A stretch of 42,825 nt of DNA from Myxococcota bacterium (GCA_049322255.1 JBMORE010000001.1:1-42825); one strand, 5' to 3'. Counted from the first letter of the stretch, positions 7,368 through 42,825 are shown. Numbers and translations: made by a program. Notes: generated by a model from the letters alone, not told the origin.

Positions 7368-8731
7368 GCCCCGCGCTGTTCCCGCTCTTCTTGAAGCTGG
7401 CCGGTAAGCGGGTGCTCCTGGTGGGCGGAGGACGGGTGGCAGCGGCGAAGCTGCCCGCGTTGCTCGAGGCGGGAGCGGCGGTCCACGTGGTGGCGCCCAA
7501 GGTGCGCGCGGAGCTTTTGGGCAGCGGCGTGCCCATCGAGCACCGGGCGTTCGTCCCCGAAGATGTCGACGGCGCGTGGCTGGTGGTGGCGGCGGCGCCA
7601 GGGGAGGTGAACCGCGAGGTGGCGAGGGCCGCTGAGGCGCGGGGCGTCTTCGTCAACGCGGTGGATGATGCGGCAGTGGGCAGCGCGTACACCGGGGGAG
7701 TTCTCCGTCGGGATGGAGTCACCGTGGCCATCGGCACCCAAGGGTCGGCACCCGCGTTGGCGGGCCTTCTGCGACAAGGGCTCGATGCGTTGCTGCCCAA
7801 GGAGCTGGGCGCCTGGGTGGAGCTGGCCGTGACGCTTCGCCGCCGTCAGCGTGCCCAAGGGGTGCCGATGGAGGAGCGAAGACCGCAGCTGCTTTTGACG
7901 CTCAACTCGCTCTATCCCCACTCCTCCCTCTCCCGCTGGGAGAGGGTAAGGGTGAGGGAACCCGGCTTCGTCTCCCTCGTCGGCGCCGGGCCCGGAGACC
8001 CGGGGCTACTCACCCTCCAGGCGGTGCGGGCGCTGGAGCGGGCCGACCTCATCCTCTACGACGCGCTGGTTTCCCCCGAGGTGCTCGCCCTCGCTGTGCG
8101 GGCGAAGCGCTTCTTCGTGGGCAAGCGCGCGCGCCAAAAATCGGTGAAGCAAGAGACCATTCACCGCTTGATGGTGCGCGCGGCGCGGCGGGGCGAGCAC
8201 GTGGTGCGGCTCAAGTGCGGAGACCCCTTCGTGCTCGGCCGTGGCGGCGAAGAGGTGCTTGCGCTCTTGGAAGCGGGGGTGCCTTTCGAAGTCGTTCCCG
8301 GTGTCAGCTCGGCGGTGGCCGCGCCCGCTCTGGCCGGCATTCCCCTCACCCATCGCGGGCTGTCGTCGTCGTTCGTGGTGCTCTCCGGGCACGCGGAAGC
8401 CTCGTACGGCCCGGTGCTCGATTCGCTCCTCCCGGGCTCGATGACGGTGGTGGTGTTGATGGGGCTGGCCCACCGGTCGGAGATTGCGGCGCGGCTTGTG
8501 CGGCGCGGCTGGCCGCCCAACACCCCGGCGGCGGTGTGTCTGGCGGCGTCGACGGAGCGCTCGGTCACCTGGGTGGGGACGCTGGGGGAGCTCTCGCCCC
8601 TCACCCCGGCCGTCTCCCAAAGGGAGAGGGAGGGGGAGCCGGGGGTGCTGGTCATCGGAGAGGTGGTGGCGCTGGCCCAGGCAACGCGTCTTCCTTTTGC
8701 GCAAGGAGCTGTCCATGGCCGCGGTGGATGA
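7364..8731 (+). CDS. cysG: Siroheme synthase (precorrin-2 dehydrogenase/ferrochelatase + uroporphyrinogen-III methyltransferase)
   Basis: 'LLVGGGRVAAAK', 'VFVNAVDD', 'VSLVGAGPGDPGLLT', 'VVRLKCGDPFVLGRGGEE', 'VVPGVSS', 'GIPLTHRG'. Confidence 0.93.
   Translation: MSPALFPLFLKLAGKRVLLVGGGRVAAAKLPALLEAGAAVHVVAPKVRAELLGSGVPIEHRAFVPEDVDGAWLVVAAAPGEVNREVARAAEARGVFVNAVDDAAVGSAYTGGVLRRDGVTVAIGTQGSAPALAGLLRQGLDALLPKELGAWVELAVTLRRRQRAQGVPMEERRPQLLLTLNSLYPHSSLSRWERVRVREPGFVSLVGAGPGDPGLLTLQAVRALERADLILYDALVSPEVLALAVRAKRFFVGKRARQKSVKQETIHRLMVRAARRGEHVVRLKCGDPFVLGRGGEEVLALLEAGVPFEVVPGVSSAVAAPALAGIPLTHRGLSSSFVVLSGHAEASYGPVLDSLLPGSMTVVVLMGLAHRSEIAARLVRRGWPPNTPAAVCLAASTERSVTWVGTLGELSPLTPAVSQREREGEPGVLVIGEVVALAQATRLPFAQGAVHGRGG
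7926..7958 (-). repeat. 33-bp hairpin repeat, copy A (in cysG inter-domain linker)
   Basis: + strand ccctctccc-gct-gggagaggg-taagggtgaggg; read in cysG as SLSRWERVRVRE. Confidence 0.9.
8598..8630 (+). repeat. 33-bp hairpin repeat, copy B (in cysG C-terminal region)
   Basis: ccctcaccccgg-ccgtctccc-aaa-gggagaggg; read as PLTPAVSQRERE. Confidence 0.88.
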
Positions 8732-10550
8732 CCCCAAGACGCTGGGCCGGGCCCGCCTCTCCTTCGCCAGCGAGGCGGACATCGACGAGCTCGCCGAGGT
8801 GCTGGCGAAGTTCGAGCGCGGAGAAATCAGCGCTGACCAGTGGCGCGCTTTCCGCCTGGTGCGCGGCACCTACGGGCAGCGGCAGAACGGCGACCTCTCG
8901 ATGCTCCGGGCGAAGATTCCCCAAGGGGTGCTCACCGCCGAGCAGCTTTTGGCGCTGGCCCGGGTGGGAGAAAAGTACTCGCGCGGCTTTGGGCACATCA
9001 CCACCCGGCAGAACATGCAGTTTCACTTCATGAAGCTTGGCGACGTCGAGCCGGCGATGCGTGAGCTGGCCGCCGCCGGGCTCACCACCCGCGAAGCGTG
9101 CGGCAACTCGGTGCGCAACATCACCTGCTGCCCCTACGCCGGCGTCAGCGCCGACGAAGTCTTCGACGTCACTCCCTATGCCGAGGCGCTCACCCGCTAC
9201 CTCTTGCGCCATCCTTTGAGCTCCTCGCTTCCGCGCAAGTTCAAGATTGCCGCCGAGGGCTGCCGCGAAGACCATGTCCTCACCGCCATCAACGACCTGG
9301 GCATCCGGGCCGCGCTGCACGAGGGCCAGCGCGGCTTTCGCATCACCGCCGGCGGCGGCACCGCCATCAAGTGCCAAAGCGGCAACCTCCTCCACCCGTT
9401 CCTTCCTGCCGGGCAGCTTTTCGAGGTGGCCGAGTCCCTCTTACGCGTCTTCCATCGCATGGGCGACCGTGAGCACCGCCAACGCAACCGGATGAAGTTC
9501 CTCGTCGCTCAGCTCGGGTGGGACGCCTTCCGCGCCGAGTACGAGAAGGCGCGCGCGCGAGTCATCGCCGAGGGCGCTCCCACGCTCCCCTTCCCTCCTC
9601 AAGCTCCTCCCGAGGAAGCGGCGCCGAGCTGGGTAAGGCCGCCGGCGCCTGCTGCGGAAGCCTCGGCCGCCCGCGCCACCCAGACGCCGGTGAAGGGCCC
9701 GGGCCTGGTTCCGGACATTCAACCGGCGCTCGAGCTCGACCCCGAGGCACATCGACGGTGGCGACGCTTCAACTTGCGTCCGCAGAAGCAGCCCGGCTTC
9801 GTCATGGTAGTGGCCACGGTGCCTTTGGGCGACGTGACCTCCTCACAACTTTTGGTGCTCGCCGACCTCTGCCGCTCCTACGGGGACGGGCAGGTGCGCG
9901 TCACCACCGAGCAGGATTTGCTCTTGCGCTGGGTGCGCGAGGAGGACGTGGAGGCGGTGCACCGCCAGCTCTTGGCCATCGGGTTGGGCCTGCCCGACGC
10001 GGGGACGGTTTCCGACGTCACCAGCTGCCCCGGCGCCGAGTCGTGCAAGCTGGCCGTCACCCAGTCACGCGGGCTGGGCAAGCTCTTGGGTGACTTCTTG
10101 CGCGCCCGGCCCGAGCTGGTGGCGGCGGCCCCGGACGTGAAAATCAAAATCTCCGGCTGCCCCAACGGGTGCGGGTTGCACCACGTCGCCGGCATCGGCT
10201 TTCAGGGCAGCATTCGCAAAGTGGGCGCCAAGGTGGTGCCGCAGTACTTCGTGATGCTCGGTGGCGGCGTCACCTCAGAGGGAGCAGGCTTCGGCCGCAT
10301 CGCCGCCAAAATTCCCGCGCGGCGCATCCCCGAGGCGCTCGAGCGGCTCCTTCGGCTCTATCAACGGCAAAGACACGTGGAGGAGTCGGGCACCGGCTTC
10401 TTCCGCCGCGTCGAGCTGGGTGAGGTGAAGGCGATGCTCGCCGACCTGGAGGTGATGACTCCTCAGAGCGCCGTTCCCGATGACTACGTCGACCTGGGCG
10501 AGACGCAGGAGTTCAAGCCGGAGACGACCGAAGGCGAGTGCGCCGCTTAA
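8715..10550 (+). CDS. sir: Sulfite/nitrite reductase hemoprotein (siroheme, [4Fe-4S])
   Basis: AAGGAG RBS; 'GTYGQRQ', 'HITTRQNMQ', 'LPRKFKIA', 'TSCPGAESC', 'ISGCPNGCG'; operon context indicates sulfite. Confidence 0.9.
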   Translation: MAAVDDPKTLGRARLSFASEADIDELAEVLAKFERGEISADQWRAFRLVRGTYGQRQNGDLSMLRAKIPQGVLTAEQLLALARVGEKYSRGFGHITTRQNMQFHFMKLGDVEPAMRELAAAGLTTREACGNSVRNITCCPYAGVSADEVFDVTPYAEALTRYLLRHPLSSSLPRKFKIAAEGCREDHVLTAINDLGIRAALHEGQRGFRITAGGGTAIKCQSGNLLHPFLPAGQLFEVAESLLRVFHRMGDREHRQRNRMKFLVAQLGWDAFRAEYEKARARVIAEGAPTLPFPPQAPPEEAAPSWVRPPAPAAEASAARATQTPVKGPGLVPDIQPALELDPEAHRRWRRFNLRPQKQPGFVMVVATVPLGDVTSSQLLVLADLCRSYGDGQVRVTTEQDLLLRWVREEDVEAVHRQLLAIGLGLPDAGTVSDVTSCPGAESCKLAVTQSRGLGKLLGDFLRARPELVAAAPDVKIKISGCPNGCGLHHVAGIGFQGSIRKVGAKVVPQYFVMLGGGVTSEGAGFGRIAAKIPARRIPEALERLLRLYQRQRHVEESGTGFFRRVELGEVKAMLADLEVMTPQSAVPDDYVDLGETQEFKPETTEGECAA

Positions 10551-10567
10551 GGTCGAAACGAGCCGCC

Positions 10568-10601
10568 CCGGGCGAGCACCGCGATGGCGATGCCCGCCCG
10601 G
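10568..10601. terminator. Imperfect GC-rich hairpin between convergent genes
   Basis: ccgggcg...cgcccgg arms with inner cgc/gcg pairing; no clear U-tract. Confidence 0.3.
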
Positions 10602-10615
10602 AAGTCTTCAAAACG

Positions 10616-11206
10616 CTACTTGATTCGCTGCTGCATCGGCTCGATGGGTGACTTTTCCTCCTCCATGGGAGAAGGCTCTACCTCGCCCGCGCCGCCCACG
10701 CCCATCTGCGAGGGCTGCACGTATTGGTAGGAGCGCACGTCGAGCGCCTGCCACAGCTTTCCTTTCTTCTGCAGGAGAGCGACGACGTGGAGCTTCTGCT
10801 CGCCGACGGGGCGGCCTTCGGGCTTCATCCCCTGAATCGTCTCCTCCGCGTCCACCAAGGCGAGGTCGCTGGGCAACAGGCGCACCGTGGTCACATTCAA
10901 CGTGAGCTTGGTGCCCTTCATTGTCTGCTGATGTTCCTTGGCGAAGTGGCGCTCGATGTCCTTGCGCCCCTTGGCTTGTTCACCTGCGGGGTCGATGAGT
11001 GTTGCGTCCTGGACGAAGTGTTCCGCCATCTTCGCCGGGTCGCCCGCGTTCCACGCCTGTTCGTACTGTTTGGCCCTCGCCCGAATCGCATCCACCTCGG
11101 CCTGCTGGGCCTTGCTCATCTTCGCCTGCGGGCTTTTCTCTTCCTGCGCGAACACCGGGGCGGCCAAAAGGACCGCCGCGATGCACCACGGCCGTGCTAC
11201 TCGCAT
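10616..11206 (-). CDS. Secreted SnoaL/NTF2-like protein (SgcJ/EcaC, DUF4440-like)
   Basis: Signal peptide ending 'PVFA-Q'; 'YEQAWNAGD...F..DATLIDPAG...KGRKDIE...VRLLPSDLALVD'. Confidence 0.8.
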   Translation of the reverse strand: MRVARPWCIAAVLLAAPVFAQEEKSPQAKMSKAQQAEVDAIRARAKQYEQAWNAGDPAKMAEHFVQDATLIDPAGEQAKGRKDIERHFAKEHQQTMKGTKLTLNVTTVRLLPSDLALVDAEETIQGMKPEGRPVGEQKLHVVALLQKKGKLWQALDVRSYQYVQPSQMGVGGAGEVEPSPMEEEKSPIEPMQQRIK

Positions 11207-11312
11207 CTGGTTCCCCTCCTGCCGACCGCGACAGGCGATCGGTGGAAAGAACGGTGCGGACGCTCGCGCCATCGGCAAGCACCGCCTGCTCGGTCTTCTG
11301 TGGGACAGGCGC

Positions 11313-13823
11313 TCAGACGTCGACGTTCGCCCGGGGGCTGTGGGCCAGGCTCTTCTCCCACCGGGTCACCGCTTCCTCGCGTTCGGGCGCTGGGCCATCG
11401 GCGAAGTAGCCCAGGTTGTCGTTGAACACCTTGGAGAGCTCTTCGATGGCGGAGAGCCGAATGTCGAGCTCCTTGTGGCGAAGCGCGGCCACCAGCCACT
11501 CCGCCCGGCGGCGGTGCCGGTTCTCCGCCCACCACGCCGTCCACTGGCGCGGCTGGGTGCCGAAGGAGGCCTTGGTGATTTCGCGCAGGGCCTCGGCGGC
11601 GGCTTGAGCACACAGCTGGTCGTCCGATCCGGTGAGGCCAATCAGCCCGTCGATGCTCTCGCGGTCGTGCAGGTTGCCCAGCGCACGCGCGGCGAGCGAG
11701 CGGCGCAACGGGTCGCGGGCGGCCAGCTCCTGGCGCAGGTCCTTCATCGCCGCGTCGAAGCGGGGCAGCCGCCGCAACGAGGTGGCGGCCACCCGCGCCG
11801 CGGAGGAGATGTCCGGCTCGAGGTCGAACAACCCGCGCAGCACGCCGTCCACCAGCTCGGGGTAGGGCAGGTTGCCCGCCGTGAGCAGCGCCAGGTAGCG
11901 CACGTCGGGTTGGTCGCTGTCGAGCAGCGGGGAGAGCGCCTGCGCCCCCGGGCGGCCCAGCCGCGAAAGCGCCGCGGGAATGGGGCCCAGCTCGTCGGCC
12001 TCCGGCAGCTCCACCACCGGCAGCCGCGACCAGGCGGTGGGCCCGGGAAAGGCCTGGGCCAAGACGCGCGCCGACGCCTCGGGAGAGCGCGACAGCTCGG
12101 CCATCGCCCGCGCGCGCTGGGCGGCGTCGGGGCCCACCAAGCGTTGCAGCACTGGGCCGAAGTCCGGAGGCGGTCGCTCCTCCTCGGACGAGGCGACGCC
12201 CGGCAGGCCCGCGGCTCGGCCGACGGCAGCGGTCGAACCGGTGGCGGACGGGCTCCAGCTCGAGCCGCGCGCTTGCATGCCTGAAGGCGCTGAGTGGCTG
12301 GCCAGCGCGGCGCTCATCGCCGACAGCTCGGCCACCGCGGGCTCGTCGGCCAGGGCGGAGCTCACCTTGCGCTTGCGCAAGACGATGAGCTCTTGGAAGG
12401 CGCCCGCCAGGTCCTGGCAGAACAGCAACAGGTCGGAGAGCTTGCGCTGGCTCACCGGCTTCTGCCCGCTGTCGCCGTAGAGAATCGCCACCAGCCGCCC
12501 CTTCACCTCCACGGGAAAGAGGAACACCGTGCGCGGGGCGCGGCCAAGCATGCCCAGGAAGTGCTGGGTGAGCGAGTCGGCCGGCACCGGGCCTACATAG
12601 CTGCCGCGGGTCATCGCCACCGTGCGAAACACGCTGGCCGCGTCGAGGGGAATCGACACCTGGCTCACCCACGCAGGGTCGGCTCCCTCGCCGCGGGCGT
12701 CCCACCCCAGCGCCGCACCACGCACGGTCGCGAAGGCCGCGGTGAAGTCGAAGGTGCGCCGGGCATAGCGCAGCGCCACGTCGACGATGCGGTCGCGATC
12801 GCGCACCGCCGCTTGGAGCGCCTCGCGCGCTTGCGAAAGCGACCAGTCGGGCACTTCGCCCACCGGTACTTCTCGGGTGGAGGTGCCAGGCGCAGTCTCG
12901 GGGGAGGGAGTGGACGCCACAGCAGGCTTCACCGCCCGCATCTCCTTCACCGTGGGCACCTCGTGCACCAAGTCGCTGGAGGGAAGAGGCAGCTCGCGCT
13001 CGGGCAGCGGCGACGGCGGCGGGGTGAACGCGGCCTTCGAGGGGGGCACCTGCCACGCATCCTGCTGCCGGCCGGGCACCGATGGGGGCACGGCCGGCAT
13101 CGAGGTGGCCTCGCGGGCGAAAGCGGCGTACCCCTTGGTGTCGAGCACCACCGTTTCCATCCGCTCGTGAATGCCGGGCGAGGTCAGGGGCGTCTTCTTC
13201 TTCACCTCGAGGGGAATCGGCTCTTCGAGGATTTGGCCGAGCGACTCTTCCAAGGTGGTGCTCTCCACCAGGTTGCTGGGGGCGCGGCTTCGAGGGGCGG
13301 CGTTCTCCGCCGGCTGGGAAGGCTTGGGCGCAGGGGTGACGGGGAGTGGTCGGCTGGGGTCGATCGCTGCCAAGAGGTTGGCAAAGCGCGCCGGGAGGGG
13401 CTGCTTGTAGATGTGCGCCACCCAGTCGCGCACTCGGCACTCGAGGGCAATCCACAGCTCGAGTCGCTTGCCGAGGAGAAAGCCCACCTCTTGTAGCTGC
13501 TGCAACGGCACCGGGTAGCTGCAGGCGACGTGCAAGACGTCGGACTCCACCGAGAGGGGCGTGACAGAGAGCCGGTCTGCCAGCTTGGGTGGAATCAAGG
13601 CCGCCATCTCGGGGTTCGGCTCGAAGTCGGAGAGGTTGACCAGACGAATGCCCGAAACGTCTGCGAGCGCCTGCAGCATGCCCGCCTCGGAGATGACGCC
13701 TTGTTCGAGCAGCACCGTGTCCAGCGCCCCCCCGGCAATGGCTTGACGCCGCACCGCCTCCTCCACGCGATCGGCGGGGAGCAGACCCCGCGCAATCAGG
13801 TGCTTTGCCAGCCGGGTGGGCAT
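11313..13823 (-). CDS. frgA: FrgA-like protein: degenerate MshEN/GSPII_N domain, Pro-rich linker, GAF-like region, HEAT repeats
   Basis: N-terminus 'MPTRLAKHLIARGLL...ALDTVLLEQG...DFEPNPEMAALIPPKLADRL' and C-terminal HEAT repeats; resembles Myxococcus FrgA as recalled, not searched. Confidence 0.6.
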   Translation of the reverse strand: MPTRLAKHLIARGLLPADRVEEAVRRQAIAGGALDTVLLEQGVISEAGMLQALADVSGIRLVNLSDFEPNPEMAALIPPKLADRLSVTPLSVESDVLHVACSYPVPLQQLQEVGFLLGKRLELWIALECRVRDWVAHIYKQPLPARFANLLAAIDPSRPLPVTPAPKPSQPAENAAPRSRAPSNLVESTTLEESLGQILEEPIPLEVKKKTPLTSPGIHERMETVVLDTKGYAAFAREATSMPAVPPSVPGRQQDAWQVPPSKAAFTPPPSPLPERELPLPSSDLVHEVPTVKEMRAVKPAVASTPSPETAPGTSTREVPVGEVPDWSLSQAREALQAAVRDRDRIVDVALRYARRTFDFTAAFATVRGAALGWDARGEGADPAWVSQVSIPLDAASVFRTVAMTRGSYVGPVPADSLTQHFLGMLGRAPRTVFLFPVEVKGRLVAILYGDSGQKPVSQRKLSDLLLFCQDLAGAFQELIVLRKRKVSSALADEPAVAELSAMSAALASHSAPSGMQARGSSWSPSATGSTAAVGRAAGLPGVASSEEERPPPDFGPVLQRLVGPDAAQRARAMAELSRSPEASARVLAQAFPGPTAWSRLPVVELPEADELGPIPAALSRLGRPGAQALSPLLDSDQPDVRYLALLTAGNLPYPELVDGVLRGLFDLEPDISSAARVAATSLRRLPRFDAAMKDLRQELAARDPLRRSLAARALGNLHDRESIDGLIGLTGSDDQLCAQAAAEALREITKASFGTQPRQWTAWWAENRHRRRAEWLVAALRHKELDIRLSAIEELSKVFNDNLGYFADGPAPEREEAVTRWEKSLAHSPRANVDV

Positions 13824-13899
13824 GCGCGCGGCATCTTACGGGGCGGGTGCGCCTCGTCCAGCGGATCTAGGAAGTTGGGCGAGCGTCGGCCTGCGAGGT

Positions 13900-15132
13900 T
13901 TAGGTCAGCTGCACCACGAACGTGGAGGTGAGCTTGTCGTGGAGCGTCTGCCCTTGGCGGTCGAAGAGGGCGAGCCAGAAGCCGCCGAGGAAGAAGGCGA
14001 AGGAGAAAGTGGAGAGCAGCGCGCGCACCAACGCCCGGGTGGGAGTGGGGGCCGTGCCGGAGCGATCCACCAGACGAATGCGGAACACCCAGCGCCCCGG
14101 CGTGCGTCCTTGCCAGAGGAAGGCGAAGAGCGCGCAGTAGACCAACGCCAGCAGCGCGGCGAGGACGACGCCGGGCACCACGATGGCTTGATGGGTGCGT
14201 ACCCGCGTCACCAAAGCGTCGAGCCAGCCGAAGTCACTCGCGGGAACTTGCGCTCCGCTGATGGCCGAAGCCACCAAGAGGTAGAGCCCCACCACCAGCC
14301 CGACGGCGAGCACGTCGACCAGCCAGGCGCCGAGGCGACGCCACAGCGCGGCGGGACGGGCGCGAACCTCTCCCTCCGGCAGCGCTTCGGTAGCCTCGGA
14401 TCGGGCCTCCAAGTCCAAAGGCAGCGAGTCGGGCGAAGGCGCGCCAGGGGCGTCGAGCTTGAGGGTGGGGCGCTCGTGGAAGGGCAGCTCGGAGGGCGCC
14501 TTCGCCGCCGTCGGCGTGCCCGGATTCACGGGGGGCGCGAAAGGAGGAACGCGTGGTGCGGCGGAAGGCGGAGGCGGAGGAGGAGACACCGGTGCGCGGG
14601 GAGCAGCGGAAGGAGCCGGAGGAGACGTCGACGCGCGGGGCGCGGCGGAAGACATCGGAGGAGAAACCAGCGTGTGAGGCGCGGCGGAAGGTGCAACCTG
14701 AGACCCCGGTGCGCGAGGCACGGCGGAAGGCGGCGGAGGAGACACCGGCGCGCGGGGCGCGGCGGAAGGCACAGCCGGAGATGATGTCAGCGCGCGCGGC
14801 GGAGAAACCGGTGGCCCGGGGCGTTGGCCGACGGGGGCTCCTCCAGAGGGGGGAGCAGGCGGCAGCGGCATCGTCGGACGCTGGCCTTCAGGCAAAGGCC
14901 GAGCCGCCGACGGGTACTGCGGCGGCGCGCCGCCTTTGCGGGACAGGTCGGCGAAGCTGGGGACGGGCCGCTGCGTGGCAGGCGCGGGGGGCCGCGCGGG
15001 CGTCTGCCGGCGGTCCATGTGCAGCTCCTTTTCCAGCAGCTTGGGAGTGATGCCTGGAACTTGGCCGGCGGCGCACGCGGTGCACTCCCCTACCGGGGGA
15101 AGCTCGGCGCCGCAGTGAAGGCACTTGGACAC
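13900..15132 (-). CDS. RDD family membrane protein with N-terminal CxxC..CxxC and Pro-rich tandem repeats
   Basis: 'PAALWRRLGAWLVD', 'GRTPGRWVFRIRLVD', 'FDRQGQTLHDKLTSTFVV'; N-terminal 'CLHCG...ECTAC'. Confidence 0.88.
   Translation of the reverse strand: MSKCLHCGAELPPVGECTACAAGQVPGITPKLLEKELHMDRRQTPARPPAPATQRPVPSFADLSRKGGAPPQYPSAARPLPEGQRPTMPLPPAPPSGGAPVGQRPGPPVSPPRALTSSPAVPSAAPRAPVSPPPPSAVPRAPGSQVAPSAAPHTLVSPPMSSAAPRASTSPPAPSAAPRAPVSPPPPPPSAAPRVPPFAPPVNPGTPTAAKAPSELPFHERPTLKLDAPGAPSPDSLPLDLEARSEATEALPEGEVRARPAALWRRLGAWLVDVLAVGLVVGLYLLVASAISGAQVPASDFGWLDALVTRVRTHQAIVVPGVVLAALLALVYCALFAFLWQGRTPGRWVFRIRLVDRSGTAPTPTRALVRALLSTFSFAFFLGGFWLALFDRQGQTLHDKLTSTFVVQLT
14530..14770 (-). repeat. In-frame 39-bp tandem repeat, about 6 units (PSAAPRAPVSPPP)
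   Basis: A gcggcggaag-like core recurs near 14558, 14603, 14642, 14681, 14720 and 14759 (spacing 45, 39, 39, 39, 39). Confidence 0.85.
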
Positions 15133-15183
15133 GCGCCTAGGAGACGACGAAGGCGGCGCGCGATCAAGATTTGATTCGACGGG

Positions 15184-15447
15184 TCAGGTGACTGCTCGTC
15201 TCTTTCCGACGAGGCCGACCAGCGCCAGCACGAGGAAGGCGCCCACCACCGACAAGATGAGCCCGCTCGCCTGCAGCCTGGCCACTCCTCCTTCCCCGAA
15301 CAGCGAGCCGATGAGCCCTCCGATGAGCGAGCCGGCCATGCCCAGCAAGGTGGTCGCGATGAGCCCCATGGGCTGCTTGCCAGGCATGACGGCCCTAGCG
15401 ATGAGTCCGGCAATCAAGCCGATGAGGATGAACGTGATGATTCCCAT
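15184..15447 (-). CDS. GlsB/YeaQ/YmgE (transglycosylase-associated) membrane protein
   Basis: 'IITFILIGLIAGLIARAVMPGKQPMGLIATTLLGMAGSLIGG...SVVGAFLVL'. Confidence 0.9.
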   Translation of the reverse strand: MGIITFILIGLIAGLIARAVMPGKQPMGLIATTLLGMAGSLIGGLIGSLFGEGGVARLQASGLILSVVGAFLVLALVGLVGKRRAVT

Positions 15448-15561
15448 CTTTTGCCTCCGACGGTGATTTGCCCCAAGGGTGGGACGCTGGCGGTCGATTC
15501 GCCCGGTTGGCCGGGCGCGCGCCTTCGAAGCCGAACGGTGGCTTGCCCGCCCGAGCGCTCC

Positions 15562-16299: not shown

Positions 16300-16301
16300 G
16301 G

Positions 16302-17171: not shown

Positions 17172-17191
17172 GACCTCCTTTTAGCCCGGCC

Positions 17192-18831: not shown

Positions 18832-18859
18832 CCTTCTCCCAGTGGGAGAGAGGTTAGGG
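18832..18859. repeat. Eroded copy of the 33-bp hairpin repeat between convergent stop codons (possible terminator)
   Basis: ccttctccc-agt-gggagagag-gttaggg; abuts TAA at 18829-18831 and contains the opposite-strand stop at 18854-18856. Confidence 0.65.
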
Positions 18860-29031: not shown

Positions 29032-29137
29032 CGAACCCACCGATGGAATGGTTCGTTCCTGTCCACGGAAGGGAATATCGACCGCTTCGTATGGGACTGG
29101 AAGGTGAGCTACTGTCATGGTGGTGATGGAGGCCTAG

Positions 29138-29347
29138 GTGTTGAAGCGACCCGCAAGGCTGCCGTTCTTGGAAGCGCTCGCTTGGCAACGTGGGGCAATT
29201 GAGCATTTGACGCCCGAGGAGCATCTGAGCCTCTACGAACGTAACTGGCGGCTCCGTGGCGTCGTCGCCGAACCGAGCTCCGAAGAGCTTCGCTACATTC
29301 GCGAACTGGCGCGAGCTTTCCAATCCGACCTCTGTGTCTCCGTATAA
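29138..29347 (+). CDS. Putative antitoxin partner of the AbiEii-type toxin
   Basis: GGAGG RBS; 69 aa 'LPFLEALAWQ...LSLYERNWR'; overlaps the toxin start. Confidence 0.65.
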   Translation: MLKRPARLPFLEALAWQRGAIEHLTPEEHLSLYERNWRLRGVVAEPSSEELRYIRELARAFQSDLCVSV

Positions 29348-30074
29348 GCGCCCGTACCATCAGCGGCTTGCACGCGTCATCGACCGCCTCGATTCGGCGC
29401 GTCTGCGCGAGTGCGGAGCCCTTTTCGGTGGGGGTACTCTTATCTCGCTGGTGCTCGGCGAATTTCGCGTCAGCCGCGACCTGGATTTTCTCTGTCCCGT
29501 GGGCGAGGGTTACCGGCGTCTGCGGCAACTGGTCGACGAGCAGGGCGCCCAAGGGCTTTTCCAGAATACCGAAGGCGTGGGGTTGCCTCGACCGGCACGC
29601 GCAGATCAGTACGGGGTCCGGTTTCCGATTGCCTTTGAAGGCGAGCTGATCAAGCTGGAGATCTTCTGTGAGGCCCGAATCGCGCTCGATCCTCCCGAAA
29701 ATGTTCCTGGGCTCTCTGTCGGCTGTCTCTCCACGGGTGATCGCTTCGCAGAGAAGCTATTGGCCAACGCGGACCGGTGGGCCGACGACTCCATCGAAGC
29801 ACGAGACTTGATCGACCTTGCGATGATGCGGCGCAAAGGCCCCATTCCACATGCGGCGGTGGCGAAGGCCGCGGCGGCATACGAAGTCGAACCAGCACTC
29901 AAGCGCGCCCTCGAAGCGTTCGGCCGGCGTCCTGGCTTCCGAGCGCGTTGCATCGAAGCTCTCGAGATTCATCCACCACACCTGAGCGATCTCTACGAGG
30001 GACTGAACCTGCTCGCGGGCGATCTCGGACTTCCTCGTCTGGAGGGTGTCGGCAACGTCACCGTGCGTTTTTGA
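29334..30074 (+). CDS. Nucleotidyltransferase, AbiEii/AbiGii toxin family
   Basis: 'FGGGTLISLVLGEFRVSRDLDFLC', 'ADQYGVRF', 'IKLEI', 'EKLLANADR', 'RDLIDL'. Confidence 0.88.
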   Translation: MSPYKRPYHQRLARVIDRLDSARLRECGALFGGGTLISLVLGEFRVSRDLDFLCPVGEGYRRLRQLVDEQGAQGLFQNTEGVGLPRPARADQYGVRFPIAFEGELIKLEIFCEARIALDPPENVPGLSVGCLSTGDRFAEKLLANADRWADDSIEARDLIDLAMMRRKGPIPHAAVAKAAAAYEVEPALKRALEAFGRRPGFRARCIEALEIHPPHLSDLYEGLNLLAGDLGLPRLEGVGNVTVRF

Positions 30075-30096
30075 GGCTCGCGGCGGTCACCACCAA
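30054..30096 (+). repeat. 43-bp direct repeat, right copy
   Basis: aacgtcaccgtgcgtttttgaggctcgcggcggtcaccaccaa; contains the stop codons of both the toxin (+) and the TPR gene (-). Confidence 0.95.
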
Positions 30097-33858: not shown

Positions 33859-33875
33859 GAGGGAGAGTTCGTACC

Positions 33876-35726: not shown

Positions 35727-35845
35727 GGGCGAAGACGTTCCTTTTGAACGCTATCGGAAGCCCGCCCTCTTGGACAACGAGATGAGGGCCGCGCCGTCTC
35801 TCCGTGCTTGCGTTCTGGGCGCATATCTGCACGCCTTGGGCTCGC

Positions 35846-36475
35846 ATGGCAGTCGCCTCCCAGCTTTGCGCGTTGCACCGCGAGCTTGCCGCTTGCCGCG
35901 CCTGCCCGAAGATGGTGGGGCCGGTGGTGCACGGACCTCCGGTGGTAAGCCCGGTGTTCCTGCTCGGTCAGGCGCCCGGACCGCGGGAGGGAAGCTTCGG
36001 CCGCCCTTTTGCGTGGACGGCGGGGCGCACCCTCTTTCGCTGGATGGAGCAGGCGCTGGGCCTTTCCGAAGAAGCCTTCCGCGCCCGGGTGTACATGGCG
36101 GCGGTGGCGCGCTGCTTTCCCGGCAAGGCCAAGGGCGGCGGCGACCGCAGGCCCGACGGAGAGGAAATCTCCAACTGCCGCCGCTTCCTTTCGCGCGAGG
36201 TGGAGCTGCTGCGGCCCCAGTTGGTGTTGCCGGTGGGGACGCTGGCCATCGAGCAGGTGTTGGGGGAAAAAGCGCCGCTGGCGGAGGTGGTGGGGCAGCT
36301 TCGCCGCCGTCGATATCACGGGGTGGAGGTCGACGTGCTGTGCCTGCCGCACCCCTCGGGAGCCTCCACCTGGCACAAGAAGGAGCCGGGGAAGACGCTC
36401 CTGGCGAAGGCGCTGCGCCTTTTGGGAGCGCACCCCGTGGCGCGACGGCTGTCAACGCAGCGGGAGGTGGGGTGA
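35846..36475 (+). CDS. Uracil-DNA glycosylase superfamily protein
   Basis: 'CRAC', 'LGQAPG..E...GRPFAWTAG', 'RCFPG', 'LPHPSG'. Confidence 0.88.
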   Translation: MAVASQLCALHRELAACRACPKMVGPVVHGPPVVSPVFLLGQAPGPREGSFGRPFAWTAGRTLFRWMEQALGLSEEAFRARVYMAAVARCFPGKAKGGGDRRPDGEEISNCRRFLSREVELLRPQLVLPVGTLAIEQVLGEKAPLAEVVGQLRRRRYHGVEVDVLCLPHPSGASTWHKKEPGKTLLAKALRLLGAHPVARRLSTQREVG

Positions 36476-37737
36476 TGCGGCTTTTCAAGCTGGCCGTGCG
36501 CAACCTCACCCGCAACCGGCGACGCACCGCCATCACCCTGGTGGCCTTGGTGGTGGGAGTGGGGGCGATGGTCACCTTGCGCGGCTTCATCAACGGCCTG
36601 CAGCGGATGATGCTGGAGAACATCGTTCACGGGCAGCTGGGCGCCCTACAGGTGCACCGCGCCGGCTACTTGGCCAACGTGCTCTCCTCCCCGCTGACCT
36701 TGGACATGGAGGACTCGGGAGATTTGCGCGCGCGCATTCGCGCGGTGCCGGGGGTGCGGGCGGTGGCGGGACGCATTCAGTTCGGGGCGATGGTGTCGAC
36801 CCCCGACGTGGGCGAGGCGCCGGGGAAGACCTCGTTCTTCCTCGCCACCGCTCTCGAGCCCGAGGCGGAAAAGGAGGTTTCTCCCAAGCGCTGGGAGTGG
36901 GTGGCGCAAGGCCAGATGCCCGCAGCGGCCGATGCGCGCGCGCTGGTGCTTGGCGCCTCCTTTGCCGAAGGACTGGACATCCCTCTCCCTCAGGGAGAGG
37001 GCAAGGGTGAGGAGGAAGAGCAATGGCCGGCACTGCTTGCAGCCGACAGAGACGGCATCCTCAACGGCGAGGCGGTGGTGTTGGCGGCTACCCTCCACAA
37101 CGCCACCCCGGGCGACAACCGGTTCGGCTTCGTCCCGCTGGTCACCGCGCAGCGGCTCTTGCGCATGGAGGGCCGCGTCACCGAATACGCCGTGGGCATC
37201 GAACGCATGGAAGACGCGGCGGTGGTGCGCGATGCGCTCGCCTCCACCCTGGGGCCCGGGTACGAGGTGCATACCTGGAGCCAGCTGTTTCCCTTCTTGA
37301 CCGAGCTCACCGGCACTCAGGACTTCATCTTCTCCGTCGTCTCCTCCATCTTTCTGGTGGTGGTGCTCTTGGGCATCGTCAACGCGATGCTGATGTCGGT
37401 GCTCGAGCGAGTGAGGGAGATAGGCACCATGCTCGCGGTGGGGCTGCGGCGGCGGCAGGTCGTTTTTCTCTTCTTGCTCGAGGGGCTGGTGCTGGGCGCC
37501 GTGGGCGGCGCGCTGGGAGTGGCGGTGGGCTTTGCCGCCGTGCAGTGGATGCAGGCGGCCGGCCTCCACCTGCCCGCACCTGGGGCGGAAATCGACTCCC
37601 TCATTCGGCCGTTCGTCTCCTCTCTCTACCTGGCGCGGGCGCTGACGATGGCAGTGGCCGGCTCGACACTGGCGGCGCTGTGGCCGGCCTACCGGGCGAG
37701 CGCGCTTCGACCGGTGGAGGCGCTGGCGCACGTATGA
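36475..37737 (+). CDS. ABC transporter permease, MacB/LolE (FtsX) type
   Basis: 'LAVRNLTRNRRRT', 'GIVNAMLMSVLERVREIGTMLAVG', 'PAYRASALRPVEAL'. Confidence 0.92.
   Translation: MRLFKLAVRNLTRNRRRTAITLVALVVGVGAMVTLRGFINGLQRMMLENIVHGQLGALQVHRAGYLANVLSSPLTLDMEDSGDLRARIRAVPGVRAVAGRIQFGAMVSTPDVGEAPGKTSFFLATALEPEAEKEVSPKRWEWVAQGQMPAAADARALVLGASFAEGLDIPLPQGEGKGEEEEQWPALLAADRDGILNGEAVVLAATLHNATPGDNRFGFVPLVTAQRLLRMEGRVTEYAVGIERMEDAAVVRDALASTLGPGYEVHTWSQLFPFLTELTGTQDFIFSVVSSIFLVVVLLGIVNAMLMSVLERVREIGTMLAVGLRRRQVVFLFLLEGLVLGAVGGALGVAVGFAAVQWMQAAGLHLPAPGAEIDSLIRPFVSSLYLARALTMAVAGSTLAALWPAYRASALRPVEALAHV
36981..37013 (-). repeat. 33-bp hairpin repeat, copy C (in periplasmic domain of permease)
   Basis: + strand ccctctccc-tca-gggagaggg-caagggtgagga; read as PLPQGEGKGEE. 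Confidence 0.9.
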
Positions 37738-38975
37738 GACCCCCCCGCTTTTTCACGATGGCTTTTCGCAACGTCCGTCGCAACCGGCGCCGCAGCCTCA
37801 TCACCTTGGCCGCCATCGTTCTGGGGGTGACGATGGTGACGGTGATGCGTGGCTTCATGGAGGGTGCCCAAGTGCTGATGGTGGACGACGCGGTGCGGGG
37901 CAAAAGCGGCGCTCTCCAGATTCACCGCAAGGGTTACTTGGCCAACGCGGCTTCCGACCCCACCGCGCTGGCGATGCGGCACGGCGGGGCGCTGGTGGAG
38001 CAGATGCGCGCGGTGAAGGGCGTCACCGCGGTGGCCGGCCGCCTGCGTTTCAGCGGGCTGGTGAGCAACGGGGTGTCGCAGACGATGTTCTCCGGGCGCG
38101 GAGTGGACCTTGCCGAGGAGCCGAAGGTGTGCCCGCGCGCAGTCGCCGGGGTCGCCGACGGCGGCGAAGCGTTGCGCGAAGGCGACCAGGGGCAGGCGCT
38201 GCTCGGCTTCGAGCTGGCGCGGAGCTTCGGTCTGGCCGTTGCCGTCGACAAGCGCCCCACGGTGAACCTTCAGTCCTCCAGCCCCGAGGGGCGCGCCAAC
38301 TCGCTCGAGGTGCAGGTGAAGGGGCTCACCGTGTCCAACCTGCCCTTCGAGAACAAGCGGGTGGTGACCGTGCCCTTGGCCACCGCCCAGTCGCTCTTGG
38401 GCATGGAGGAGCAGGTCACCGAATACGTCCTCGCGGTCGACGACCTTTCGCGGGTCGACCGGGTGGCCGAGTCGCTGCGGGCGGCGTTGGGGCCGGAGTA
38501 CGAGGTGCACACCTGGAAAGAGGTGATGCCCTTCGTGCGCGACGTGGTGAATCGCCAGAATTTCGTCTTGGGGACGGTAGCGGTGGTGCTCTTCGTCATC
38601 GTCCTCACCGGCATCATCAACACCATGTTGATGAGCGTCTTCGAGCGGGTGCGGGAGATTGGCACCATGCTCGCGGTGGGGGTGAGGCGGCGGCAGGTGC
38701 TTTGGCTCTTCGTGCTCGAGGCCGGTGTGCTGGGTGTCGCCGGAGGGTCGGCGGGCGCGGCGCTGGGGAGCGCAGCCGTGGGGGTGTTGGGCGCGGTGGG
38801 CTTGCCCGTGCAGCTGTCCGGTACCTCGGGCAGCTCGATGCTGCGGCCTTCGGTCTCGGCGGTTTTCGTCGCCGTCGCGGTGCTCATCGCCTTCATCGGC
38901 GCGCTCCTCGCCGCCGCCTATCCCGCCTACCGCGCTTCCCGTCAGAACCCCGTCGATGCCCTGAGGTCCGCATGA
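37734..38975 (+). CDS. ABC transporter permease, MacB/LolE type (paralog)
   Basis: 'MAFRNVRRNRRRS', 'NTMLMSVFERVREIGTMLAVG', 'PAYRASRQNPVDAL'. Confidence 0.92.
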   Translation: MRPPRFFTMAFRNVRRNRRRSLITLAAIVLGVTMVTVMRGFMEGAQVLMVDDAVRGKSGALQIHRKGYLANAASDPTALAMRHGGALVEQMRAVKGVTAVAGRLRFSGLVSNGVSQTMFSGRGVDLAEEPKVCPRAVAGVADGGEALREGDQGQALLGFELARSFGLAVAVDKRPTVNLQSSSPEGRANSLEVQVKGLTVSNLPFENKRVVTVPLATAQSLLGMEEQVTEYVLAVDDLSRVDRVAESLRAALGPEYEVHTWKEVMPFVRDVVNRQNFVLGTVAVVLFVIVLTGIINTMLMSVFERVREIGTMLAVGVRRRQVLWLFVLEAGVLGVAGGSAGAALGSAAVGVLGAVGLPVQLSGTSGSSMLRPSVSAVFVAVAVLIAFIGALLAAAYPAYRASRQNPVDALRSA

Positions 38976-39718
38976 GACTGTTCTTGTCGATGTTGCTGTT
39001 GGCGGCGCCGGCCTGGGCCGCCGAGCCCACCGCCGCCGAGATTTTGGCCCGCTACGACCAGGTGATGGGGCCGCTCAGCTTCGACGCCAAGATGTCGATG
39101 ACCGCTCGCCGCGAGGACGGCAGCGAGCGCACCTACGTGATGAAGGTGCTCAAGAGCGGCCAGGACAAGCTACGCATCTGGTTCCTCGCCCCCTCGGCGG
39201 TGAAGGGCCAGGAGATGCTGCGCAACGGCGACAACCTCTGGGTGTACCTGCCCAACTTGAAGCGGGCCACCCGCATCGCCAACCGCGACAGCTTTCAGGG
39301 AGGAGACTTCAACAACGCCGACGTCCTCCGGGTGAACTACCAGGCGGATTATGAGGCCAAGTTGGTCGCCCCTCACCCCAACCCTCTCCCGGAGGGAGAG
39401 GGGGCGGAGGCGGAGATGTATCAGCTGGAGCTTCAGGCCAAGCACGGCGCCACCGCGTACGACGTCATCAAGCTGTGGGTGCGCAAGAAGGACCTGATGC
39501 CGATGCGGGGCGAGTACTACGGCACCAGCGGACAAATGATTCGCTCCGCCGAGTTCTCCGATTTTCAGGAGCTGGACAAAGGCTATGTGCGTCCCGCACG
39601 GGTGGTGATGAAGAACGAGCTGGTGAAGGCCCGCCGCTCGGAGATGCGCGTGGAGTCGATGCGCCTCTCGGTGGATGCACCACCGCAGCGCTTCACCCAG
39701 ACGGACTTGGGGCGGTAG
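38972..39718 (+). CDS. Outer-membrane lipoprotein-sorting (LolA-like) periplasmic protein
   Basis: Signal peptide 'PAWA-A'; 'FLAPSAVKGQEML...LWVYLP..KR..RI...SFQGGDFNNAD'. Confidence 0.85.
   Translation: MRLFLSMLLLAAPAWAAEPTAAEILARYDQVMGPLSFDAKMSMTARREDGSERTYVMKVLKSGQDKLRIWFLAPSAVKGQEMLRNGDNLWVYLPNLKRATRIANRDSFQGGDFNNADVLRVNYQADYEAKLVAPHPNPLPEGEGAEAEMYQLELQAKHGATAYDVIKLWVRKKDLMPMRGEYYGTSGQMIRSAEFSDFQELDKGYVRPARVVMKNELVKARRSEMRVESMRLSVDAPPQRFTQTDLGR
39370..39402 (+). repeat. 33-bp hairpin repeat, copy D (in LolA-like gene)
   Basis: ccctcaccccaa-ccctctccc-gga-gggagaggg; read as PHPNPLPEGEG. Confidence 0.93.
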
Positions 39719-41152
39719 GTGCGCAGCCTCTTCGCGCTGATGCTGGCGGCGAGAGCGGCGATCGCCGCCGAGGTGAACGGCTACGCCGAGTCGCGCAGCC
39801 AGCTCTCCCGTGCGCGGGTGCAGGGACTTCTTCCCACCCACGAGCTTCCCCAGTTGCTCCAGCTCGTCGAGCTCAACACGCAGGTGCGGCACGCCTACGT
39901 CGAGCGCGGCTTTTTCTACGGCGACCTCTCCCTCTTGTTGCAGGTCGCCGGCAGCTACCGGGGGCTCGACGCCCAAGGGGCGGAGGTGGGCCTGCCCGAC
40001 CGCGACTTGGCGCAGAACCACCCGGTCGTCTCCCTCAACGAGCTCTATGCGAGCCACGAGGTACGGCCCGCGCTCCACGTGCTGTTGGGCAAGAAGCGGG
40101 TGGTGTGGGGCAGCGGTTTGGCCTTCAACCCCACTGACCTCTTCAACCCGCGCAAAGACCCCACCGACCCTACTTTCCAGCGTGCGGGAGCGTGGATGGC
40201 GAGCATCGAAGCGCCGTTGGAATCGGTCGCCTTCACCTTCGCCGCCAGCCCCGCGGTGCTCCGGCAGGACAGCGGCCTTCCCTATCAGCTGCTCCTCCAC
40301 CCGAGCTGGGACGTGCAAGACTCGCAGTACCACTACCTCCTGGCGGCGCGCGCCTACGCCCTGGTCCGGGAGAGCGACCTCAACTTGATGCTCTTTTTCG
40401 GCAACCGCTACGGCGACGACTTCGAGAACAAGCTGCGGGTAGGCGCCTCGTTCTCCCGCTACTTCTTCACCGACTACGAGCTGCACGTGGAGGCGTTGGT
40501 GCAGGCCGGCTCCACGCGCGCGTACGTTCGCTCGCCTTGCGTGGAAAGCGCCCTGGCCGCGCTTCAGTGCCAGGCCGAGGGCACCCCGTTCGCCTCCCAG
40601 GCGCTGCTCGACGACGGGCGCCTGGTGCCCAAAGTCTTACTTGGCGCTCGTACCCAGCTCGCCGACGAGTCCATGCTTTCGCTCGAGTACCTCTACCAGG
40701 GCGATGGTTTCAGCCGCGCGCAGATGGCCGACTGGGTGAGCGGGCTCGATTTGCTCCGGCAAGCGCGGGAGCTGGGCGTTCCTTCCGAGCGCCTGCCCTC
40801 CACCGGCTCGCTCTTGGGAGGCGCGGTGGACGAGGGGGTGCCGCAGAAGTTCAGCTTCGAGCCTTTGGGGAGGCACTACCTCTTCGCCACATTCCAGAAG
40901 CCGAAGATTCGCGACGACTTCACCGTATCGGCTTCGCTGGTGGCCAGCCTCACCGACCTCTCCTCGATGCTCGCTCCTTCCGTCAGCTGGAGCGCGAGAG
41001 AGTGGCTTCAACTCTCGCTCTTTGGCTTTCTCCCCCTCCCCGGGCCGCGCGCTTTGGCCACCACGGTGCCGCGCACGGGCGAGGCCGTGAGCGAGCACAC
41101 CTTGCTTCCTGTGCAGTACCGCGCGCTCTTCTCCGCCCGCGTCTTCTACTAA
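39719..41152 (+). CDS. Probable outer-membrane beta-barrel protein
   Basis: Signal peptide; 'LNELYAS...LGKKRVVWGSGLAFNPTDLFNP'; C-terminal 'FSARVFY' resembles a beta-signal. Confidence 0.72.
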   Translation: MRSLFALMLAARAAIAAEVNGYAESRSQLSRARVQGLLPTHELPQLLQLVELNTQVRHAYVERGFFYGDLSLLLQVAGSYRGLDAQGAEVGLPDRDLAQNHPVVSLNELYASHEVRPALHVLLGKKRVVWGSGLAFNPTDLFNPRKDPTDPTFQRAGAWMASIEAPLESVAFTFAASPAVLRQDSGLPYQLLLHPSWDVQDSQYHYLLAARAYALVRESDLNLMLFFGNRYGDDFENKLRVGASFSRYFFTDYELHVEALVQAGSTRAYVRSPCVESALAALQCQAEGTPFASQALLDDGRLVPKVLLGARTQLADESMLSLEYLYQGDGFSRAQMADWVSGLDLLRQARELGVPSERLPSTGSLLGGAVDEGVPQKFSFEPLGRHYLFATFQKPKIRDDFTVSASLVASLTDLSSMLAPSVSWSAREWLQLSLFGFLPLPGPRALATTVPRTGEAVSEHTLLPVQYRALFSARVFY

Positions 41153-41161
41153 AGACCGACC

Positions 41162-41866
41162 ATGAACCAGCCCCTCATTCAGCTTTCCGGCATCGAGAAG
41201 CACTACCAGCTCGGCAAGACCACGGTGACCGCGCTGCGCGGAGTAGATCTGAAGGTGCATGGCGGCGAGTTCACCGTGGTCACCGGCCCCTCCGGCTCGG
41301 GGAAGACCACCCTGCTCAACATCATCGGCTGCCTCGATCGCGCCAGCGGGGGACGGTACCTGCTCGACGGCGAGGACGTGAGCGCGCGCGACTTCGACGA
41401 CTTGGCCGAGGTGCGTAACCGGAAGATTGGCTTCATCTTCCAGAGCTTCAACCTCATCCCGGTGCTCGACGTGGCGGAGAACATCGAGTTTCCCTGCGCG
41501 GTGCGCGCCCAAGGAGAGCCTCCCCAAGCCCTGCGCAAGCGAGTCGAAAAGCTCGCCGAGGCAGTGGGCCTTTTCCCTTTCCTTCGCCACAAGCCCGACG
41601 AGCTGTCCGGAGGGCAACGGCAGCGGGTGGCGATTGCCCGCGCGCTCATCACCGAGCCGCGGTTGGTGCTGGCCGACGAGCCGACCGCCAACTTGGACTC
41701 GCAGACCAGCGACCAAATCATCGACCTGATGGTGAAGCTGAACCAGGAGAAGGCGGTGACCTTCCTCTTCTCCACCCACGACCCGCGGGTGGTGCGCCAC
41801 GCCAAGCGTGCGCTGCACATTCAGGACGGGCATATCGCCCAGGGAGAAGAGGCGCCCGATGAGTGA
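41162..41866 (+). CDS. ABC transporter ATP-binding protein, LolD/MacB type
   Basis: 'GPSGSGKTT', 'IGFIFQSFNL', 'LSGGQRQR', 'LADEPTANLD', 'STHD'. Confidence 0.95.
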   Translation: MNQPLIQLSGIEKHYQLGKTTVTALRGVDLKVHGGEFTVVTGPSGSGKTTLLNIIGCLDRASGGRYLLDGEDVSARDFDDLAEVRNRKIGFIFQSFNLIPVLDVAENIEFPCAVRAQGEPPQALRKRVEKLAEAVGLFPFLRHKPDELSGGQRQRVAIARALITEPRLVLADEPTANLDSQTSDQIIDLMVKLNQEKAVTFLFSTHDPRVVRHAKRALHIQDGHIAQGEEAPDE

Positions 41867-42825
41867 GCCTCGACGGTTCGCCGGCCTCGACGCCGCGCGG
41901 TCTCTCGCCGTGGTGGCGATGGTGATGGGGCACTCGCTCGATGCCGTGCTCTCTTCCGCCGGGCGGGAGAGCTTCGGCGGTCAGCTCTACTGGGAGTTTC
42001 GTGCCTTCACCGCTCCGCTCTTTCTCTTGGTGAGCGGGTGGGCGGTGGTGATGAGCGCTCAGCAGCGGGGGCTCGTGGGAGTCAGGGTGCTGCGCCGGTA
42101 CCTGCCCCGCGTGGGGCTGCTCTTTCTTCTCGGCTTTGTCTTGCGTTTCCCCGCCTGGAACTGGCGGGGCCTGGTGCACGGCGACGAGTCGGTGTGGCGG
42201 CACTTCCTTGCCTTCGACGCGCTGCACGTCATCGCGGCGAGCCTGCTGGTGGCGCTGGGCGTCTTGGCCGTCGTGCGTGACGAGCGGGTGCGGGCGCTGT
42301 GCTTTGGCCTCGCCGCCGTCGGCATGCCGTGGGCCACCCCGTGGGTGTGGAGCACTCTTTCCCACGCTCCGTCATGGGCGCAGCAAACCCTGGGCGGAGG
42401 TGATGCGCCCTTCCCCCTCTTCCATTGGGCCGGCTATTTTTTCATCGGTGCATTCCTCGGTGTAACCCTCTCCCACTGGGAGAGGGCAAGGGTGAGGGGC
42501 GTCATCGCACTCCTAGCGCTCGCCGCCTTGGCGATGCTCGCCGCCGGACCGACCCCCGCGGCCCAGATGGCGCTTGCCAGCTGGACCAAGTTCGTCTGGA
42601 GGCTCGGGGGAACGCTCATCCTCTTGGCGCTGGCAATGGCGCTACCGGAGCGGTGGGCCAGAGCGCTCGCTCCAGTGGGGCGCGCCTCGCTGTGGGTCTA
42701 CGTCATCCACCTGCCCATCGTGTACGGGTGGGCGCTGTGGCCGGGCTTGTCCACGCTGGTGGGGCCGACGCTTTCACCGTCCGTGGCCGTGGCGACGGCG
42801 CTCGGGGTGACCGCGGTGAGCGTCA
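41859..42825 (+). CDS. Membrane acyltransferase (HGSNAT/DUF1624/Acyl_transf_3-like); runs off the window end, so absent from the ORF track
   Basis: Hand translation: MSEPRRFAGLDAARSLAVVAMVMGH...APLFLLVSG...DALHVI...FPLFHWAGY...GRASLWVYVIHLPIVYG; no stop found in the translated stretch. Confidence 0.8.
   Translation, partial: MSEPRRFAGLDAARSLAVVAMVMGHSLDAVLSSAGRESFGGQLYWEFRAFTAPLFLLVSGWAVVMSAQQRGLVGVRVLRRYLPRVGLLFLLGFVLRFPAWNWRGLVHGDESVWRHFLAFDALHVIAASLLVALGVLAVVRDERVRALCFGLAAVGMPWATPWVWSTLSHAPSWAQQTLGGGDAPFPLFHWAGYFFIGAFLGVTLSHWERARVRGVIALLALAALAMLAAGPTPAAQMALASWTKFVWRLGGTLILLALAMALPERWARALAPVGRASLWVYVIHLPIVYGWALWPGLSTLVGPTLSPSVAVATALGVTAVSV
42466..42498 (-). repeat. 33-bp hairpin repeat, copy E (in acyltransferase loop)
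   Basis: + strand ccctctccc-act-gggagaggg-caagggtgaggg; read as TLSHWERARVRG. Confidence 0.92.

Follow-up and report, generated by a model that had tools for sequence, protein, structure and literature searches.

The window analysed here, 42,825 nucleotides forming an entire contig of a Myxococcota bacterium (GCA_049322255.1 JBMORE010000001.1:1-42825; genome of 4.85 Mb, 66% GC and 99.6% complete), carries five copies of a 33-bp hairpin element inside four open coding sequences, and the element belongs to the BoxC/TM repeat family. Elsewhere in the genome, inverted copies of the same element (hereafter arms) bracket a gene of the DUF559 family. We put at about even the chance that the five copies are non-autonomous offspring of an arm-DUF559-arm cassette, installed at new sites by host repair following a predicted DUF559 cut.

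The five copies lie at 7926-7958 (minus strand), 8598-8630 (plus), 36981-37013 (minus), 39370-39402 (plus) and 42466-42498 (minus), exactly where an earlier sequence-only reading of this DNA had placed them. Each matches the motif with 0 or 1 mismatch, and 100 shuffles of the window gave an expectation of 0. The intact siroheme synthase gene cysG (7364-8731, plus strand, 455 aa; 398.7 bits against PRK10637, cut-off 400) hosts the first two. One copy lies in the inter-domain linker (residues 188-199, SLSRWERVRVRE) between the NAD_binding_7/cysG_Nterm and TP_methylase domains, and the other in a loop near the C-terminus of the methyltransferase (residues 412-423, PLTPAVSQRERE). The third encodes part of a variable periplasmic loop (IPLPQGEGKGEE) of an intact FtsX/MacB-type ABC permease (FtsX and MacB_PCD, 36475-37737, plus). 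The fourth lies in a turn between two strands (residues 133-144, APHPNPLPEGEG) of an intact LolA-like protein (LolA_like, 38972-39718, plus, 248 aa), and the fifth (TLSHWERARVRG) lies in an acyltransferase-3 family gene (Acyl_transf_3, 41859-42825, plus) that is open to the contig end. All five thus sit in recognisable open genes, as first proposed, with a Pfam or NCBIfam match running across the element or lying on either side of it. The peptides and their four strand and frame combinations also agree with the earlier description, as does the placement in loops or linkers. In a structure prediction of the LolA-like protein, made from a 15-sequence alignment, the element is a coil between predicted strands 127-132 and 149-156, with a local pLDDT of ~67, the mean for the model being 86.

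When every called gene was recoded synonymously the motif disappeared, leaving 0 matches at ≤1 mismatch in five of five replicates versus 76 in the real genes, and 3-9 versus 87 at ≤3 mismatches. Because the motif is lost when the peptides are preserved, the conserved entity is the DNA and not the peptide, and the count stands well clear of the codon-shuffled controls. None of the aligned orthologs carries the same peptides without the DNA hairpin. A chance or peptide-driven origin of the motif is ruled out by the shuffles and the recoding together.

The resemblance to Escherichia coli BoxC that had been suspected proved to be an identity of pattern. The reverse complement of the element fits the published TM(ECO) pattern CCCTCNCCC N3-6 GGGNGAGGG N3 GGGNGAGGG (Holder et al., PMC4666352), so the repeat family is already known; BoxC and PIT are its older names in that paper. 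The same pattern gives 23 matches in E. coli K-12, equal by count to the published 23. The element has the C-rich stem, loop and two G-rich stems of a class II triplex motif, and it is dispersed and multicopy, with inverted pairs. From this motif it may fold into an intrastrand triplex, the computed structure being the hairpin alone: a 9-bp stem is predicted in three of the five window copies and a partly alternative pairing in two (z -1.1 to -2.5). A pyrimidine-type tail accompanies 185 of 200 perfect hairpins in the genome. Holder et al. report triplex folding in vitro and local instability, and describe the K-12 copies as strictly intergenic, which is an observation on K-12 and not part of the definition. 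BoxC is listed with no coding role in the sections consulted of PMC2267715. A scan of the window against Rfam found nothing at the gathering threshold.

Genome-wide, 250 copies match at ≤1 mismatch, and relaxing the limit to ≤3 mismatches gives 275 that do not overlap (277 before overlapping opposite-strand matches were removed), or about one per 18 kb. Against genes called with a custom hexamer caller, a non-standard tool (4375 genes, 89% coding), 141 of the 275 are intergenic and 134 overlap called genes: 46 lie over a stop codon, 25 fall within the final 30 codons, 19 are at a start or close to one, and 44 are mid-gene (25 under a strict definition). Gene interiors are thus depleted of copies, with 25-44 of 275 mid-gene versus ~70% of random positions, and the coding copies are survivors of a family that is mostly extragenic or at gene ends. 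The high density of coding copies that first drew attention to the window is therefore real there, with five of five mid-gene, and unusual for the genome; we explain it no further than by the selection of the window. Of the strict mid-gene hosts, 20 lie outside the window, and 17 of these match a Pfam family, including MurD, TsaB, MoaA, BioD, PilQ, Lhr, RqcH and LolA. Similarly, the hairpin loop differs in every window copy, as claimed, while genome-wide its first base is A in ~90%.

The element is read in five frames, in both orientations, with a sixth frame that supplies a stop. This stop-containing frame had been described as never used, which holds for the five window copies and the mid-gene copies. 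At gene ends it is the commonest frame, and 43 of the 46 stop-overlapping copies provide both the gene tail and its TGA. Some 40 proteins consequently share an element-coded PSPxGRGxG-type tail ending at the element TGA (for example purB, L172; folD, L173; udk, L174). Of 20 of the 46 stop-overlap hosts that were scanned, 14 match NCBIfam at 1e-40, the match in most cases ending where the tail begins, and the matched hosts include PurB, FolD, Udk, RimK, RibD and CheB. The strict mid-gene set of 25 showed no significant preference among the open frames (chi-square p 0.14). A degenerate sixth copy in the window (18832-18859, minus), overlooked in the sequence-only reading and too degenerate for the 3-mismatch scan, lies between two convergent genes; its hairpin end abuts the TAA of the plus-strand gene, and its tail contains the TAA of a peptidase-like gene on the minus strand.

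A functional explanation would be that selection maintains the copies because they serve the host as terminators, as peptide tags or as hairpins that stabilise mRNA. Among intergenic copies of one orientation, 57 of 80 are no more than 10 nt away from a stop codon, and divergent (promoter) gaps make up 28% of the intergenic length while holding 9 of 139 copies. Both orientations and five reading frames are in use, however, 111 of 139 copies lie between co-oriented genes, the hairpin has no following U-tract, and the peptides are absent from orthologs. PIT elements, as cited in PMC4666352, also showed neither promoter nor terminator activity. We regard a host function as very unlikely to account for the repeat.

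We compared the coding sites with orthologs from other genera, 45-75% identical. The LolA-like site is a net insertion (+9 to +11 aa, mostly +10, versus 14 of 14 orthologs). At the second CysG site, ~6-9 host residues appear to be replaced, with a net +3 to +6 aa versus eight orthologs. The permease site differs by -1 to +3 aa from the five closest of ten orthologs, a replacement of net ~0, and the acyltransferase site has no net length gain versus 22 covering orthologs (23 aligned), which points to equal-length replacement. At the CysG linker site, the linkers of orthologs are up to 7 aa shorter or ~4 aa longer. By these alignments, the element appears to stand in for a host segment of similar length at three of the five window sites, while one site falls within a variable linker and one is a clean insertion. 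The proposal of an in-frame insertion that remodels proteins thus holds for a dispersed, lineage-patchy element that does remodel its hosts, and as to clean insertion for one window site of five.

Other genes in the genome show the same range. The TsaB site is +10 aa versus five of five orthologs, MoaA +15 to +17 aa, BioD +14 to +15 aa, MurD -3 to +5 aa, an epimerase +2 aa and RqcH -27 to -35 aa, the last in a poorly aligned region; an element pair in Lhr adds +17 to +26 aa versus four orthologs that lack the element. Taken together, 12 mid-gene sites show net length changes of about -30 to +26 aa. In PurB and Udk the last 2-6 codons and the stop are lost to the element. Two relatives have copies of their own at the same loops: a ninth CysG ortholog (G020, L027) carries one in the second-site loop, in the opposite orientation and with a longer hairpin loop, and the lhr gene of G015 (L128) carries a single arm at the site and in the frame of the pair here, where shared ancestry is possible. 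These copies suggest that permissive sites are reused. In E. coli, four of eight K-12 sites examined were set against shorter alleles, in comparisons that are unpolarised. At ilvC-ppiC, a 50-bp element block stands where the other allele has 9 bp and looks like a replacement; adk-hemH is also replacement-like.

Of the 275 copies, 80 make up 40 close pairs with spacers of 8-29 nt (~0.2 pairs expected), and in all 40 the hairpins face outward. The outer element end is sharp (2 conserved nt) and the inner end is ragged, with a weak ~10-nt extension. No target-site duplication had been visible in the window, and genome-wide the flanking direct repeats show no excess, with a longest shared flank word of 3.43 for the 40 pairs versus 3.25±0.14 in shuffles and 3.45 versus 3.39±0.06 for the 195 singlets.

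One way to obtain such singlets is by deletion. A whole arm-DUF559-arm cassette, or a pair, would insert, and the single arms, including the five in frame, would be deletion leftovers, so that apparent replacement is insertion plus later deletion. REP singlets are interpreted in this way in PMC3116915. Consistent with it, singlets with a ragged inner end carry spacer-like remnants, the same Lhr site holds a pair here and a single arm in G015, in the same frame, and in several relatives DUF559 matches lie within open frames of 549-1896 aa (L146; L139, G111; L140, G228; L141, G098), which are possible in-frame cassettes in larger genes. The singlets nevertheless outnumber the 80 paired copies, are hardly more decayed (mean mismatches 0.54 versus 0.49) and have a decayed partner at ≤8 mismatches in just 5 of 194 cases, unlike REP singlets. 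The LolA-like and TsaB sites show the same +10 aa gain, which fits a single step, and murD or tsaB would have had to tolerate an intermediate of 450 bp. We consider this deletion scenario unlikely, although it is the most credible of the alternatives weighed here.

The reading that we prefer, direct transfer of arms from a DUF559 cassette, draws on the partner gene. An enzyme encoded elsewhere had been postulated to mobilise the element, and a search for a nuclease or transposase gene flanked by copies returned a candidate, with mobilisation itself read from architecture. A RAYT/HUH partner is ruled out, as a Y1_Tnp/RAYT (PF01797) profile search of the genome gave no match. The genome has one full DUF559 gene (PF04480, E 1.6e-37; 117 aa), plus two weak partial matches. 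Inverted copies flank this full gene at distances of 33 and 24 bp from the Pfam match, hairpins outward as in the pairs, and the right arm provides the TGA of a convergent neighbour gene. We extended the comparison to 36 DUF559 loci from two genome samples (a weak match, L012, and a partial one, L021, were excluded, and L064 of G064 was left out of the alignment). The flank inverted-repeat score reached at least 20 at 25 of the 36, a level attained by none of 185 control genes from this genome (maximum 12). The arm variants are locus-specific but matched on both sides, differing in such features as longer loops and an extra hairpin in the tail linker.

Two further features of these loci were seen. 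The extra hairpin, between tail and stem, occurs in L007, L013, L019, L020 (G009) and G228 copies, and would be in keeping with a tail that folds back to form a third strand. A TGTCAG-like word recurs next to arms, on their inner side, and just upstream of DUF559 genes (L007, L013, L018-L021 of G009; L016 of G025); it is also present in the pair spacers of G000, and upstream of E. coli ycjD (L106) it sits in a palindrome. This word is possibly a binding or regulatory site.

The DUF559 protein matches structure 3HRL (E 1.9e-23), and the family is grouped with Vsr in PMC3424549. Residues E24, D53, E64 and D66 are invariant in 36 of 36 loci, and H70 and D79 are present in 35. DUF559 is predicted to be a Vsr-like nuclease, its acidic and histidine residues being spaced like those of Vsr and I-Bth0305I (PMC3239194), with the residue correspondence taken from that spacing.

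Copy number is patchy among kin: 17 of 24 family members have 0 copies and four have 164-329. In an order-level survey of 151 genomes with a relaxed pattern (G064 left out; repeat-rich meaning at least 10 copies; kin not independent), DUF559 occurs in 7 of 16 repeat-rich genomes versus 8 of 134 others, and six of those eight have inverted flanks at their DUF559 genes. In E. coli, the DUF559 gene is ycjD, whose region occurs in 3343 of the 5426 genomes. A degenerate arm lies at the 3' end of K-12 ycjD and a full copy 170 bp beyond; in strain B1.H1.1 the arm at the 3' end is intact. K-12 has ycjD and 23 copies, whereas Nissle has no DUF559 match and 2 copies (n=2, anecdotal). We rejected the fabI-sapF interval of ycjD-less E. 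coli (L154 and L155 versus L106) as a clean empty site, since a TetR-led block lies there; ycjD and this block are alternative alleles, not filled versus empty.

These distributions also bear on spread independent of any enzyme, in which the triplex or hairpin would bring replication to a stall and multiply through template switching or gene conversion, DUF559 being a passenger captured between arms or using them as regulatory sites. The published folding in vitro and local instability (PMC4666352) agree with it, and repeat-rich genomes without detectable DUF559 exist. It leaves unexplained the matched, locus-specific inverted arms around one gene family across genera, found at none of the 185 controls, and the all-or-none copy numbers among kin; the K-12 and Nissle difference likewise counts against it. 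We judge this route improbable.

Under the DUF559 cassette reading, the unit would be arm-DUF559-arm, with pairs and single arms as reduced forms. While the DNA is transiently single-stranded, the Vsr-like nuclease would recognise an arm folded into a hairpin with its third strand, and nick at the sharp outer end. Host repair would use the freed arm, with its ragged inner end, to patch a break at another site, where the arm takes the place of a target stretch of variable length. Selection would then retain harmless outcomes only: copies between genes, copies over stops (where the arm supplies a TGA), and in-frame copies in linkers or loops at the protein surface. The arrangement is likely a RAYT/REP-like system with a different enzyme. 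More tentatively, and with the balance tilting to the other side, BoxC/TM repeats could be the termini of a class of mobile DNA that has not been described before, in which DUF559 recognises a three-stranded end and 33-bp arms spread by 'cut-and-overwrite' without target duplication, rewriting loops or C-termini of ~100 proteins, including the essential MurD, TsaB, PurB and FolD.

Several observations weigh against a DUF559-driven origin. Eleven of the 36 DUF559 loci fall under score 20, this genome's own locus among them (score 17), and a generic arm detector sees both arms at 14 of 36 (0 of 185 controls), this detector being strict and overlooking some arms that can be seen by eye, one of them at this genome's locus. 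No strand-transfer domain is obvious in DUF559, and its nuclease role is predicted from sequence. No DUF559 was found at E≤1e-15 in 9 of the 16 repeat-rich genomes, and G007 (255 copies) and G017 (164 copies) have no match at 1e-10. K-12 ycjD has no upstream arm and its downstream arm is degenerate. The apparent replacements could be insertions followed by later deletion; junctions rest on the 45-75% identical orthologs because no same-genus relative was available, and neither empty alleles nor movement events were seen for this organism in a search of related strains, which listed no RNA data set with this DNA and a single sequencing run that may be the source itself. Of the four E. coli filled/short pairs, one is bounded by an 8-bp direct repeat and one is mere decay of a pair, polarity being unassigned. 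Holder et al. (PMC4666352), in the sections consulted, found neither triplex protection in vivo nor a link to mobile elements.

Since the 1990s BoxC has stood as an orphan repeat, with published work giving it no function, partner or K-12 coding copies. We found no literature linking DUF559 or ycjD to BoxC/TM repeats, or describing coding copies, in a search that left most subscription papers outside. This genome contributes a tally of outcomes and evidence from orthologs for overwriting. A specific candidate enzyme with an E. coli homolog, ycjD, makes the origin of BoxC testable in a laboratory strain. If DUF559 does move arms, this would be a transposition chemistry of PD-(D/E)XK nuclease, folded DNA end and host repair, beside the DDE and HUH systems. 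Protein sequence change from such a source can also be measured in this genome, in the overwritten loops and the shared C-terminal tails, and in annotation such peptides should be taken as repeat-derived and not as functional motifs.

Regarding the remainder of the window, an assembled contig from a sequencing run, possibly the source run, is identical over 36400-41458, including the permease and LolA copies, and is not independent. At the contig start, the gene at 3-739, which we take to be transporter-like, seems to switch frame at ~300-370 (two overlapping open reading frames), reflecting a frameshift or an assembly error. Small genes at 771-2000 and 29256-30074 are presumably toxin-antitoxin-like: a MazF-like gene at 961-1362, a degenerate PIN-like pair and a nucleotidyltransferase-like gene. 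On the minus strand, 3601-4700 encodes a predicted protein very rich in Cys, Gly and Pro, with repeated C-x-C-x-C-x2-C motifs, that the codon-model gene caller missed.

Compared with E. coli BoxC/PIT/TM, the repeat shares the sequence pattern, inverted pairs and patchy copy number among kin, but differs in its many coding copies, a loop fixed at 3 nt and arms that bracket a DUF559 gene. It resembles the REP/REPIN-RAYT system (PMC3116915), where short hairpin repeats likewise recur hundreds of times in a genome, singly or as inverted doublets, and where inverted copies of the cognate variant lie on either side of the enzyme gene, a place taken here by the DUF559 loci. Unlike that system, the enzyme has a predicted Vsr-like PD-(D/E)XK fold and is not an HUH tyrosine transposase, there is a putative third, triplex-type strand, many copies are coding, target sequence appears replaced, doublets do not predominate and singlets are no more decayed. 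As in a classical MITE, the pairs share arms and orientation with the DUF559 cassette as terminal inverted repeats, cassette autonomy being assumed, whereas the target-site duplication of a MITE was not found here. The Rickettsia palindromic elements (PMC10969869) are likewise palindromic repeats translated in frame within unrelated metabolic genes, but are ~150 bp with one conserved peptide, as against 33 bp, several frames and host codons often overwritten. Finally, DUF559 falls in the same fold group as the Vsr/EDxHD homing endonucleases such as I-Bth0305I (PMC3239194), with acidic and histidine residues that appear similarly spaced; unlike I-Bth0305I, it is a stand-alone protein without a NUMOD DNA-binding part, intron or intein, and its own gene is bounded by the repeat.

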